64,000 nucleotides of DNA from Candidatus Omnitrophota bacterium. GTDB taxonomy: Bacteria > Omnitrophota > Gorgyraeia > Gygaellales > Profunditerraquicolaceae. The DNA is taken from contig JAPLLW010000015.1 in assembly GCA_026387355.1 (NCBI GenBank), positions 27,569 to 91,568 of the forward strand, read 5' to 3'. Position 1 is the first letter of the stretch. Each line of letters starts with the position of its first letter. A program made the position numbers. Positions 60,001-64,000 of the stretch are shown here, in pieces.

Positions 60001-63000
60001 GATTGGCCAGGGAAAGGTAAAGTTGGCTTTAGCAGTAAAAACCGACATAAACCGCACGCTTTGTTTTGTTTTAGGAAATAAAAAATGAAGATTAAAATAA
60101 TTTATCCTAAATGGCCGAAATTAAAGAATCAGCCGGAGTTTAATCTTCCCCCGCATGGACCGGTTTGTTTTGCTGCGACCATACCTCTTGGCATTGCGAT
60201 ATCCTTTTGCGATGAGAATGTAGAGCCACTAGATTTTCAAGAAGAGGCAGATCTTATCTGCCTATCGGTTATGCTCACCTGTCAGATTCCGCGCGCATGG
60301 GAGATTGCTGATTACTATCGTAGCCATGGCAAAAAAGTCCTCTTTGGCGGAATCGCTACTATGCTGCATTATGAAGAGACTATTCCTCATGCTGATAGTA
60401 TATTTCTAGGGGAAGCAGAAGGTAGGATGGAGGAAGTAGTTAATGATTTTAAATCCGGAAATCTGAAGAAGGTTTATAATTATTTAAACAATTTTCCTGA
60501 TACAAATTTAATCGGTAATGCGCGAAGGGATATACTAAAAAGAGATCTTTATAATTTTCGTGGCGTACAGATGGTTGATCTGGTGCACGCCTCACGCGGC
60601 TGCCGTTTTAATTGTTTTCCCTGCTGTACTCCGTATCTGGGGGGTTGTAAGTTTAGGCCGCGACCGATTCCTGCTGTGGTTAAGGAGTTAGAAAGTATTA
60701 AAAATAATCGACTTTTCATCGTAGACAACTCTCTTTCGCAGGACGATAATTGGGAGAAAGAATTATTCAAGGCCATAGCGCCCTTAAAGAAGAAATGGGT
60801 TTCACATCCGATTAAAGATGATGATGAGATCCTGGATTTAGCAGTTAAGGCCGGATGCTGGTATGTTTATCAGGCAGTGGTGGATACCTCTGAGCATATC
60901 CGCAAAAAAGTTAAGAGGTTGCAGGAACGCGGCATAGGAGTTGAAGGGACAATAATCTTAGGTATGGATAATCACGATGAGGATTATATTAAACGCCTGG
61001 TAGACTTCTTATTGGAGATAAAATTAGACTTGGCAGAGTTTACCATTCTTACTCCGTTTATGCATACGCCGATAAGGCAGCAGTTAGAAAAAGAAAATCG
61101 TATTCTACATAATGACTGGTTGCATTATACCGGAGGAGAGGTGGTTTTTAAGCCGGCTAAGATGAGTATAGATTCACTGCAAAAGATGTACGAATATGCC
61201 TGGGCAAATTTCTATGCCGATTTTAGCAAAGAAGTAAAAATGGCTAAGTTGTATTTAAAGGTTATTGAAAGAGAAAAAATGGACGGAACCTATCAGGGGC
61301 CGGTGCTAAGAGATAGATCTAAATGGGGAAAGCAAAAAGTATGAAGGTATTTCTAATCTCATCAAATATAGCAAGCACACCTTATTCAGTTTATCCGTTG
61401 GGTTTAAGCATGGTTGCTGCAAGTATTAAAGATGCGGGGCATTCTGTCCGGCAATTTGATTTTCTCGCCAGTAACCGTTCAATAGAGGAGCTAGCTAACC
61501 AGATTAAAGACTTTAGCCCTGAGCTTATAGGAATTTCAATCCGCAATATCGATAATGTAAACTTACTTAATGAACAGCGTTATCTTGATGCAGTGAAGAA
61601 GATTATTCAGGAGATCCGTTTAATAAGTAAAGCAAGAATAGTCCTTGGAGGATCGGGTTTTTCAATTATGCCCGAGATAATTTTAAATGAACTTGCCGCA
61701 GATTACGGTATCATGGGCGAGGGAGAATCTTTGATCTTAGATTTTATTAATAATGCTAGTAAAGGGGAGTATCCCCTAGAGCGCATATTAAAAGGAAGCC
61801 CTAAATTATCCGGGCTAGGTATACCTTCGGCCTGCTATGATAAGAGTATTATGGAGTTTTATTTAAAGAGCGGAAATGTTGCCTCTGTGCAGACTAAGCG
61901 CGGCTGTACGTATAAATGCGTATATTGTTCTTATCCGGTATTAGAGGGAACAGATATCCGTAGCCGTGATATAGATAGCGTTGTAGACGACATCCGCAAT
62001 CTAATCGATAATCACGGAGCAAAGTATATATTTTTCACAGATTCGGTATTTAATGATGGTAAAGGTGCTTATCTTGAAGTGCTTAGAAAAATGCATGAGC
62101 ACAAAATAAATATCCCCTGGACTGCTTTTTTCAAGCCGCAAGGTCTGACTGATGAAGCGCTTGAATTAATGAAGTTAACCGGGCTTAAAGCGGCGGAGAT
62201 TGGCGCAGATGCGTCTACGGATATAACTCTAAAAGGGCTAGGCAAATCATTCTTGTTTAAAGATATTATTGAATGTAACCAGCTCTTTGCAAAGCATAAT
62301 ATTGCTACAGCGCATTATTTTATGTTTGGCTGTCCCGGGGAGAATAGGGAGACGGTTTTAGAAGGGATTACGAATATTAAAAACCTGCAAAAGACAGTCT
62401 CATTTATTTTTATGGGGATACGTATCCTTCCCGGAACACCTCTAGCTAAATTGTCAGAGAAAGAAGGCCTTATTAAGCCCGATCAAAACTTGCTTGAACC
62501 GGTTTATTATATTGCTCCGGGTTTGGATAAGCGATGGCTTGAAGAAACTCTTACGCAGGGTTTTGAGGGTATGCGTAATTGCGTATTTCCCCCTGATGCC
62601 CTGGATAGCAGTCTGGCATTCTTGCATAAATTAGGTTATTCCGGTTCGCTTTGGGATATGCTTATCCCCGGTAATTCTGTACGTAAGCGGGAGAGGAGAA
62701 AGGTTGCTGGATAATAATTCTACAAATGATATCTGGTGCGTAATCCCGACTTTTAATAATAAGAATACAATTAAGTCGATTGCCCTAGATTGCCGTAAGT
62801 ATCTTAAGCATGTGCTTGTAGTTGATGACGGCTCTACTGATTGTAACGTAAAAGAGATATTTAAAGATACAGATATAACTGTCTTAGGACACGAGAAAAA
62901 CTTCGGTAAGGGGAAAGCTATGCGCACCGCTCTTGATTATATTGTTCAGCAGGGTGGCGAGTTTATGATCACAATTGATGCTGATGGTCAGCACTATCCG

Positions 63001-64000
63001 CAAGAATTAATGAAATTTATTCCGGCATTACGCAGTAATCCTACCGCTATAATTATCGGTTGCCGTGATTTCAGCCATGAGAATGTTCCGGGGAAGAGTA
63101 AGTTTGGCAGAGGCTTTTCTAATTTCTGGATTACATTAGAAACCGGAATAACCGTAAATGATTCGCAGAGCGGATTCAGGGCCTATCCGGTAGAATATCT
63201 ATCTAAAATGAAGTTATCCGGAGATTTCTACGATTTTGAGGCTGAAGTTTTAACTCGCGGTGCTTGGGCAGGGCTTGACATTAAAGAGGTCCCCATAAAT
63301 GTTTTTTACCCTGAAGAAAAATTTCGCGTCTCAAGTTTCCGCCCCTTTATAGATACCTTGCGTATTAGCCTTATGCATATCCGGCTTATCGGGCGCAGGC
63401 TCTTGCCGATTCCGTATCCGAGAGTTATCCCGGCAATGCATAAAAACAACTATAAAGATATTCTAAAGCACCCGATGGTATTTTTAAAACACCTACTATC
63501 TGAGAATGCTACTCCTTTGGGGCTTGCAGTTGCCGCAGGGGTGGGGATGTTTCTGGGGGTACTACCTATTCTTGCCGGGCATATTTTAGTTACTATTTAC
63601 GTATCAGAGAGATTGCACCTAAATGTAGTAATGGCAGTAGCAATTCAGAATCTATGCATGCCTCCGCTTATGCCGATTGCTTGTATCGAATTGGGTCATT
63701 ATATGCTTTATAAAAAGTGGATTACGGATATTTCATGGCATACTGTTTTTGGGGCAATCCCGGAGCGCATTTGGGAGTGGTTTTTAGGTTCTTTAATCCT
63801 TGCTCCGATTATGGGCTTGATTATCGGAGTAGCCGTATATTTTTCTACCCGGGCAATAGCTAGGAAAAAGAGTAGGCATGGATAATATTGATGGTTCAAT
63901 TCGGATATCTACCAAGAGAAGAGGTAATAAATTAGGGTTTTGGTTTTTTAAGTTTTTTTTGAATTGTTTCGGTCTAGCTGGCGCATACGGGTTGCTATAT

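Follow-up and report, generated by a model that had tools for sequence, protein, structure and literature searches.

Two separate radical S-adenosylmethionine families and a putative split ApeJ within an aryl-polyene-like, 'ladderane'-labelled lipid cluster of Candidatus Omnitrophota

A 64,000-nucleotide (nt) stretch of a Candidatus Omnitrophota contig (hereafter, the window) carries at its right end, on the plus strand, a block of four genes: two radical S-adenosylmethionine (SAM) enzymes, here called rSAM-A and rSAM-B, a glycosyltransferase fused to a DUF2062 domain (GT2-DUF2062), and the start of an LpxL-like acyltransferase (Table 1). These genes form the middle of an aryl-polyene (APE)-like type II polyketide/fatty-acid cluster of at least 26 genes, of a type that antiSMASH labels 'ladderane' and that has been known since 2009 yet is uncharacterised. 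The original prediction, made from the sequence alone, had placed the genes at 60085-63885, and the open reading frames (ORFs) are present at these coordinates; a fourth ORF begins at ATG 63878 and leaves the window end. Exactly matching proteins have been annotated in a metagenome-assembled genome (MAG) of Candidatus Omnitrophica (Omnitrophota), on a contig of 129,678 bp, and 186 amino acids (aa) of the fourth ORF are available from an identical 6.7-kb contig (L001) in Logan, a public read-set assembly.

The four genes are one translationally coupled block. The GT2 gene overlaps rSAM-B by 11 nt, and the LpxL-like gene overlaps the GT2 stop by 8 nt. The 22-nt overlap originally predicted for the radical SAM pair proved to be a product of the longest-ORF rule; an overlap of 4 nt (ATGA) is most likely. 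We place the rSAM-B start at ATG 61341 because the profile model TIGR04072 begins at residue 8 of the longest ORF, the NCBI annotation gives a protein of 457 aa, GGGGA lies 11 nt upstream of this ATG, and the embedding of the rSAM-A stop in ATGA is conserved (the window and 56/75 related loci).

The location of the four genes within a lipid/polyketide cluster, extending from 45292 to beyond 64000, agrees with the original prediction, but their placement at its distal end does not: the block lies mid-cluster. In the closest locus (L002; rSAM-A 88% identical), at least seven more cluster genes follow; downstream there lie the LpxL-like gene, an acyl carrier protein (ACP), a ketosynthase (KS), a chain-length-factor (CLF)-like KS, a zinc-ribbon protein, a second ACP, and a 427-aa protein without assignment. 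Behind the 427-aa protein are a FAD_oxidored gene (two ORFs here) and then a B12-binding ORF (L002:19462-20969), and weak extra rSAM-A-like matches occur in L050, L060, and L068. The full cluster may hold a fourth or fifth radical SAM beyond the window. A scan of one genome per species gave at least 541 confirmed matches, and the best 80 loci by rSAM-A similarity were compared; absolute identity ranges in this set are thus selected, while contrasts within a locus are not. In about 75 of the 80 loci, the order PlsC, ligase, SPASM, LolA, MMPL, DUF3261-like protein, dehydratase (DH), thioesterase (TE), KS2, 194-aa protein, rSAM-A, rSAM-B, GT2, LpxL-like protein, and KS is conserved.

When compared by blastp with the reference APE cluster of Escherichia coli CFT073, KS1 was 42% identical to ApeR, the SDR (short-chain dehydrogenase/reductase) 42% identical to ApeQ, and KS2 and KS3 35-36% identical to ApeO. 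Further matches paired the stand-alone dehydratase with ApeI, the thioesterase with ApeK, the MMPL protein with ApeM, and the ACPs with ApeE/F, while those of the PlsC-type protein to ApeD and of the ligase to ApeH were weak. LolA was assigned by Pfam and NCBIfam, and the DUF3261 match was weak. The cluster has homologues of ApeR, Q, O, I, P, K, L, M, and E/F, and weakly of ApeD and N, in common with the APE clusters of E. coli CFT073 and Xenorhabdus doucetiae, and the same logic would be expected of it: a sugar-phosphate anchor, acylation of the sugar, and MMPL/LolA export. In contrast, ApeA, ApeB, and ApeG are not present in the window cluster (blastp found no homologue of the ApeB methyltransferase in the window part of the cluster, and blastp and Pfam gave no DUF2062 match for E. 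coli ApeG), and its ligase is FlxY/PaaK-like rather than ApeH-like. The window cluster also adds three radical SAM enzymes and a CrtI-like oxidoreductase; the E. coli APE cluster contains no equivalent of rSAM-A, rSAM-B, or the CrtI-like protein.

Residues 362-494 of the third of these radical SAM enzymes, the SPASM protein, form a hot-dog dehydratase domain that is 31% identical to E. coli ApeP. Because ApeP pairs with ApeI in APE synthesis, this enzyme may be physically tied to a dehydratase acting on ACP-bound intermediates. In Spirochaetota, the SPASM-linked dehydratase is a stand-alone ORF. The 194-aa protein gave no Pfam or NCBIfam match and no blastp match to ApeC; its position and its lack of a catalytic Cys suggest a CLF-like partner of KS2. 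In some Omnitrophota loci only (4-5/80), KS2 is separated from this partner by inserted genes for a DUF4410 protein and a lipoprotein. The best promoter-like site was at 45106-45134, although a promoter/terminator scan of 44800-64000 showed no enrichment over shuffles and is uninformative for Omnitrophota.

Table 1. Features of the window (positions are those of the 64,000-nt stretch)
Feature	Position	Strand	Description
rSAM-A	60085..61344	+	419 aa; radical SAM without family name; Rossmann-like, B12-domain-like N terminus (residues 1-130) and radical SAM core C173xxxC177xxC180
rSAM-B	61341..62714	+	Class-B (cobalamin-type) radical SAM; TIGR04072; 457 aa from ATG 61341
rSAM-B, longest ORF	61323..62714	+	463 aa
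GT2-DUF2062 fusion	62704..63885	+	393 aa; TTG start with GGAGAGGAG Shine-Dalgarno sequence ahead; by homology, ApeJ N-terminal half
LpxL-like acyltransferase, N terminus	63878..64000	+	Lipid A acyltransferase family; ATG 63878, cut by window end; by homology, ApeJ C-terminal half
Upstream cluster part	45292..57146	+	SDR (ApeQ/FlxB-like), CrtI/CrtD-like flavin adenine dinucleotide (FAD) oxidoreductase, KS1 (ApeR-like), ACP, PlsC-type acyltransferase (ApeD-like); then FlxY/PaaK-like coenzyme A (CoA) ligase, rSAM-SPASM fused to ApeP-like dehydratase, LolA, MMPL exporter; at the end, weak DUF3261 (ApeN-like), ApeI-like dehydratase, thioesterase (ApeK-like)
rSAM-SPASM-dehydratase fusion	51090..52574	+	Part of the preceding row
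KS2	57134..58264	+	Active-site-competent ketosynthase, ApeO-like
DUF4410 protein	58219..58803	+	Omnitrophota-specific insert
Lipoprotein	58857..59525	+	222 aa; Omnitrophota-specific insert
194-aa protein	59504..60088	+	After KS2 in 74/80 loci
AddAB-like helicase/nuclease genes	end at 44836		
Five B12-type radical SAMs	388, 10162, 14334, 15815, 25512		
Two adjacent Tes/TrsS-like radical SAMs	11617, 12982		Without B12 domain; 158-166 bits against tetraether lipid synthase cutoff of 450
Three plain radical SAMs	23540, 24532, 27695		
Three SPASM-type radical SAMs	3778, 32266, 51090		

The two genes behind the radical SAM pair had been read as a glycosyltransferase with a membrane-embedded DUF2062 tail and the start of an LpxL-like acyltransferase, and profile searches support both assignments. 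The GT2-DUF2062 protein matches Pfam Glycos_transf_2 (67.6 bits) and DUF2062 (43.1 bits), and its segment from residue 269 to residue 386 contains three to four hydrophobic stretches; the LpxL-like homologue of L002 (302 aa; 67% identical to the window fragment) matches Pfam Lip_A_acyltrans (48 bits; cutoff, 22). The former is predicted to comprise a cytoplasmic Dpm1/PpgS-like lipid-phosphate glycosyltransferase domain and a membrane tail of three to four helices. Its best NCBIfam neighbour, below cutoff, is PpgS (polyprenyl-phospho-N-acetylgalactosamine [GalNAc] synthase), which fits a role as a lipid-phosphate sugar transferase.

By blastp, residues 12-237 of GT2-DUF2062 align with residues 8-239 of E. 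coli CFT073 ApeJ (31% identity; E = 3e-29), and the L002 LpxL-like protein aligns with ApeJ residues 258-550 (25% identity; E = 5e-11). In addition, a MAG of Desulfonema limicola encodes a 594-aa fusion of GT2 and LpxL domains (L050:12527-14311) that is collinear with ApeJ 8-550 over 571 residues (E = 4e-48), where a MAG frameshift artefact is possible. Because both halves match ApeJ and the fusion is collinear with it, GT2-DUF2062 and the LpxL-like protein are, by homology, a split ApeJ. ApeJ itself is one polypeptide without DUF2062; in the window, its two domains occupy two overlapping genes, and the GT2 half has a DUF2062 tail instead. The DUF2062 fusion was found in 56/72 loci, while Desulfobacteraceae have GT2 alone; those neighbouring L050 encode a GT2 of about 285 aa without DUF2062, followed by a separate LpxL-like gene.

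For Xenorhabdus ApeJ, a two-step role has been proposed: GalNAc is first linked to the phosphate of a diacyl-glycerol-phosphate intermediate, and the ACP-bound aryl polyene is then attached to this sugar as an ester. In the solved aryl-polyene lipid, the backbone is glycerol-phosphate-GalNAc, and the sugar bears the chain in ester linkage. In E. coli, mutation of apeJ or apeD leads to a build-up of late intermediates that are not anchored. The original prediction had the lipid product glycosylated or head-group modified at the membrane. Homology to ApeJ favours membrane-side head-group chemistry, but it is the anchor that would be glycosylated, not the product after its modification.

The radical SAM pair was correctly predicted to be distinct from the five B12-type copies in the glycan operon, to which both enzymes are at most 28% identical. 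It was also suggested that the pair might form its own clade among the B12-type radical SAMs of the window, and this was not borne out. rSAM-A and rSAM-B are 25% identical to each other (37.7 bits), rSAM-B is closer to the five glycan-region enzymes (78-99 bits) than to rSAM-A, and neighbour joining places each of them with its orthologues from other phyla. Judged by these alignments, the two enzymes are members of two old, separate families. The 25% identity and the tree grouping also rule out the alternative that they are recent duplicates.

rSAM-B exceeds the Pfam thresholds for both B12-binding (67.6 bits; threshold, 32.1) and Radical_SAM (65.7 bits). Against NCBIfam TIGR04072, "lipid biosynthesis B12-binding/radical SAM protein," it scores 630.8 bits (cutoff, 360), with residues 8-448 covering model positions 1-442 of 443, and is assigned as a full-length member of this family. 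KS, ACP, DH, TE, and acyltransferase genes flank it in the window and in 75/80 loci. The cysteines of its CxxxCxxC motif (C195/C199/C202, longest-ORF numbering) are invariant in the alignment. The next-best profile families are BzaD (194 bits) and TsrM (144 bits), both far under their cutoffs of 450-500, and TsrM is the closest solved structure. Both are cobalamin-dependent radical SAM Csp2 methylases, TsrM being a tryptophan C2-methyltransferase. According to a 2026 review, Arg69 of TsrM lies beneath the corrin, Glu236 lies between both cofactors, and Glu273 caps the fourth iron, which is presumed to preclude radical chemistry. rSAM-B shares the class I architecture and the Arg below the corrin, which is invariant at the R69 position (GISIRNID). 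In contrast, it has Val at the position of cluster-capping Glu273 (TDSVFN) and Tyr at that of Glu236 (CSYP), which leaves room for ordinary SAM cleavage. Thus, rSAM-B is probably a TsrM-like cobalamin scaffold whose cluster can bind and cleave SAM. The substrates of TsrM and BzaD are an amino acid and a benzimidazole; that proposed for rSAM-B is a lipid intermediate.

rSAM-A is a separate family that is not named in NCBIfam or Pfam. It reached no NCBIfam cutoff (best, 55.6 bits), scoring 41.9 bits against TIGR04072 (cutoff, 360), and both of its Pfam matches fall under the gathering score (B12-binding, 30.6 versus 32.1 bits; Radical_SAM, 25.1 versus 29.5 bits). The B12-binding label that the original prediction gave to both enzymes is therefore supported at the domain level for rSAM-B and is not established for rSAM-A. 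The AlphaFold2 (AF2) model of rSAM-A nevertheless has a Rossmann-like N-domain, and its CxxxCxxC cysteines are invariant in the alignment. In a profile-profile alignment with rSAM-B (96.9% probability), rSAM-A shows a seven-residue deletion at the loop of the lower-axial Arg. Its best structural and sequence match, and closest solved structure, is AprD4 (19% identity), a radical SAM 1,2-diol dehydratase. AprD4 is listed among the enzymes unrelated to B12 use (2026 review). Scores against the AprD4, HpnJ, and BchE families were 28-37 bits (cutoffs, 480-578; 500 for AprD4 model NF033070), so that rSAM-A is a member of none of them; moreover, these families serve aminoglycoside, hopanoid, and chlorophyll pathways, whereas the context of rSAM-A is lipid biosynthesis.

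When a protein library is clustered at 50% identity, about two full-length representatives are left of the rSAM-A orthologues. The next full-length relatives are only 33-40% identical, so the family is a tight island; these relatives are unnamed proteins nearest HpnJ, BchE, and MJ_1487, the first two of which are the nearest named families. A 1,210-aa protein of the representative library (P0353) fuses an MMPL/HAE3 transporter of the RND (resistance-nodulation-division) type (residues ~137-750) to an rSAM-A-like domain (residues 819-1173; 34% identity). This fusion could be a Rosetta-stone link of the rSAM-A type to exported lipids, or else a gene-calling artefact; it hints at a membrane-lipid substrate.

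The best 80 loci come from about nine phyla (Omnitrophota, Desulfobacterota, Nitrospirota/Thermodesulfovibrionia, Planctomycetota, Verrucomicrobiota/Kiritimatiellia/Victivallales, Spirochaetota, Ratteibacteria, and others), across which rSAM-A is 71-88% identical. In the 29 loci holding all core genes, the median identity to the window protein was 72% for rSAM-A, followed by rSAM-B (61%), SPASM (56%), the LpxL-like protein and KS2 (55% each), GT2 (52%), LolA (39%), and MMPL (38%). A 14-sequence cross-phylum alignment of rSAM-A had a mean column identity of 82%. Thus, rSAM-A is by far the most constrained gene of the cluster. In L011 and L024 (Spirochaetota/Brevinematales), rSAM-A is 78-81% identical to the window protein, while all other cluster genes are 23-52% identical; this reflects either extreme constraint on rSAM-A or recent replacement of that gene.

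Three loci break the conserved order. Two of them, from Spirochaetota, have the cluster divided between divergent operons: rSAM-B (40% identity) keeps its place after KS2 and the 194-aa protein, alongside the thioesterase and a dehydratase, while rSAM-A (78-81%) lies with the LpxL-like gene and KS3, and a GT2 without DUF2062 is on the other strand. In a Ratteibacteria locus, the LpxL-like gene directly follows rSAM-A, and neither rSAM-B nor GT2 is present. These break points associate rSAM-B with chain building and rSAM-A with acyl transfer, and they are the sole evidence on the substrates.

Taken together, these results suggest the following pathway. By homology to ApeR/O/Q/I/P/K, the KS/CLF pairs, the ketoreductase, and the dehydratases would build one or two ACP-bound chains from a starter loaded by the CoA ligase. 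The cobalamin-dependent rSAM-B, with its TsrM-like scaffold and an iron site free for SAM, would modify the chain of the KS2/CLF module; the likeliest modification is C-methylation, either at an sp2 carbon (aryl or polyene) or at a carbon next to one. rSAM-A, as an AprD4/HpnJ/BchE-like enzyme whose B12-like domain is trimmed, would carry out a second, non-methylating radical step on the lipid (dehydration, rearrangement, or C-C bond formation), coupled to its constant companion, the LpxL-like acyltransferase. GT2-DUF2062 would move a hexosamine from a nucleotide sugar onto the phosphate of a glycerophospholipid anchor, a substrate suggested by the aryl-polyene lipid, after which the LpxL-like acyltransferase would esterify the finished ACP-bound chain onto that sugar. 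The MMPL, LolA, and DUF3261 proteins, by analogy with ApeL/M/N, would export the lipid to the outer membrane. The suggestion in the original prediction that the lipid is C-methylated or rearranged is plausible in this light, as rSAM-B sits with the Csp2 methylases TsrM and BzaD and rSAM-A with the non-methylating AprD4, HpnJ, and BchE. We regard the identity of the cluster and the split ApeJ as highly probable and the picture as a whole, including the radical SAM roles and export, as somewhat probable; the chemistry assigned to each radical SAM enzyme is tentative.

Several points weigh against this proposal. The features of rSAM-B conflict with one another, as a polar lower-axial Arg goes with non-radical methyl transfer and an open iron site with radical chemistry. 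rSAM-A gives mixed signs on cobalamin binding, keeping the canonical GG motif and spacing yet lacking the lower-axial loop. The AF2 models of both enzymes are of moderate confidence only (predicted local distance difference test scores of 69-70), with shallow alignments. The break-point evidence comes from three loci, and selecting the 80 loci by rSAM-A similarity biases the absolute identity range. The Kuenenia and Desulfotalea clusters described below resemble the window cluster in gene content, and their genes are putative orthologues. The Kuenenia proteins kuste3342 and kuste3343 were undetectable after expression in E. coli (Javidpour et al. 2016, PMC4790861). Finally, no product is known for any cluster of the ladderane-labelled type, and the chain may be aryl or purely aliphatic.

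Other readings of the pair must be weighed against the same data. One or both enzymes might instead act on the sugar installed by GT2, with deoxygenation by rSAM-A and methylation or ring contraction by rSAM-B, on the model of HpnI and HpnJ in hopanoid cyclitol-ether formation. In favour, translational coupling links the pair to the GT2 and LpxL-like genes, AprD4 acts on an aminosugar diol, and HpnJ, one of the named families closest to rSAM-A and its relatives, carries out the ring contraction of a lipid-borne glucosamine (PMC9204698). Furthermore, the Ratteibacteria locus lacks both rSAM-B and GT2, and in Spirochaetota the two show unusual divergence (40-42% identity). The split Spirochaetota clusters, however, keep rSAM-B with KS2, the 194-aa protein, TE, and DH and have GT2 elsewhere on the other strand, the Ratteibacteria rSAM-A has no adjacent GT2, and the nearest characterised relatives of rSAM-B methylate aromatic sp2 carbons rather than sugars. 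We therefore consider head-group tailoring unlikely. The same break points bear on an obligate rSAM-A/rSAM-B heterodimer that performs a single reaction, with rSAM-A mainly a scaffold or substrate-presenting subunit. Near-universal adjacency and conserved ATGA coupling would suit such a complex, and the conservation of rSAM-A (median of 72% versus 38-61% for its neighbours) fits a surface constrained by several partners. Yet rSAM-A has retained its invariant CxxxCxxC and its radical SAM core, is found with no rSAM-B in Ratteibacteria and apart from it in Spirochaetota, and is not fused to rSAM-B in any protein among the top 120 matches of either search, which makes the heterodimer improbable.

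Slightly more improbable still is that the radical SAM enzymes work with the CrtI-like oxidoreductase and the SPASM-dehydratase fusion to turn a polyene, by cyclisation or cross-linking, into ladderane-like or other rings, as once proposed for the homologous Kuenenia cluster. This reading draws on the occurrence of the cluster type in anammox bacteria, on the proximity of rSAM-A relatives to the cyclase BchE and the ring-contracting HpnJ, and on the presence of three radical SAMs and a desaturase-like flavoprotein beside polyene-type KS/DH machinery. It is opposed by the distribution of the at least 541 matches across many non-anammox phyla and by Desulfotalea, a carrier of the cluster that has no ladderanes and makes acyclic polyunsaturated compounds only (Rattray et al. 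2009). Ladderanes are reported only from anammox Planctomycetota, and current work assigns their synthesis to a different, anammox-specific cluster, kuste3603-3608 (Cluster I: amxACP, amxFabZ, and amxFabF2/amxFabFmut). The name 'ladderane' is thus misleading, as most carriers are not anammox bacteria. The original prediction had itself named housekeeping functions as a counter-explanation, in which the pair would be tRNA, rRNA, or ribosomal-protein methylthiotransferases of the MiaB/RimO/MtaB type that merely lie beside the lipid cluster. In the profile check, these models gave 16-36 bits against cutoffs of 251-357, Pfam found no TRAM domain in the pair, and the N-terminal cysteines of rSAM-A are not conserved, C66 alone being invariant. 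With rSAM-B a full-length TIGR04072 protein (631 bits) and both genes holding their place in the lipid cluster across phyla, profile scores and synteny effectively refute this explanation, to which we assign a negligible probability.

We thus return to the proposed aryl-polyene-like pathway in which both radical SAM enzymes modify the lipid, and to its place in the literature. Rattray et al. (2009) reported synteny between Kuenenia kuste3335-3352 and Desulfotalea psychrophila DP1853-1860, including the radical SAM pair kuste3342/kuste3343 (DP1853/DP1855). The window cluster has the same adjacent radical SAM pair, PaaK-like ligase, CrtI-like flavoprotein, several FabF-like KS proteins including non-canonical ones, ACPs, and a glycosyltransferase, and differs by its Omnitrophota-specific DUF4410 and lipoprotein inserts. 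Clusters labelled 'ladderane' by antiSMASH were also reported, and found to be expressed, in Omnitrophota, Desulfobacterota, and other phyla of the Cariaco Basin, with their function left open, and in a 2026 review the radical SAM steps still figure as unknown. Beyond the 2009 comparison, the failed 2016 expression, and reviews, our literature search found no functional study of TIGR04072 or the rSAM-A family.

The window is therefore a typical, complete-looking example of a known, uncharacterised cluster family and not a new system. What is new is the assignment of a split ApeJ, the difference in affinity between the two radical SAMs, the exceptionally strong constraint on rSAM-A, and the fusion of SPASM enzyme and dehydratase. 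Among the orphan lipid pathways of anaerobic bacteria, the cluster type, which genome-mining software routinely mislabels 'ladderane', ranks with the most widespread (at least 541 matches), and it is expressed in anoxic waters. rSAM-A, despite its 'secondary' cluster setting, is conserved like a core housekeeping protein. It is conceivable, although we would at present sooner doubt than assert it, that rSAM-A and rSAM-B are the signature tailoring enzymes of an undiscovered class of outer-membrane glycolipids in hundreds of anaerobic species of at least nine phyla, with rSAM-A performing a new, cobalamin-independent radical transformation of the lipid (C-C bond formation or rearrangement) at its hand-over to the LpxL-like acyltransferase. 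In that case, the product would be a polyketide-type lipid altered by radical SAM chemistry; among non-isoprenoid lipids, a recent review gives only ladderanes and jawsamycin as proposed examples. The split ApeJ, the radical SAM neighbourhoods, and the constraint on rSAM-A make the pathway more directly testable in cultivable carriers, among them Geobacter and Desulfotalea, which Rattray et al. (2009) list as carriers, and Desulfosarcina BuS5.

Outside the four-gene block, the density of radical SAM genes in the window is very high (15 genes in 64 kb, at 388..28654, at 32266..33330, and in the lipid cluster). Those at 388..28654 lie among aminotransferases, GT2s, WbqC, PMT_2, and asparagine synthase in a glycan-type operon. 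The published study of Mss/Tes lipids draws no link to the rSAM-A or rSAM-B family. Just upstream of the AddAB-like genes, the region 31366..37001 encodes an alpha/beta hydrolase, a radical SAM-SPASM protein (32266), a MacB-like permease with an ATP-binding cassette (ABC) ATPase, and a carbamoyltransferase, which may form a peptide or small-molecule maturation/export set.

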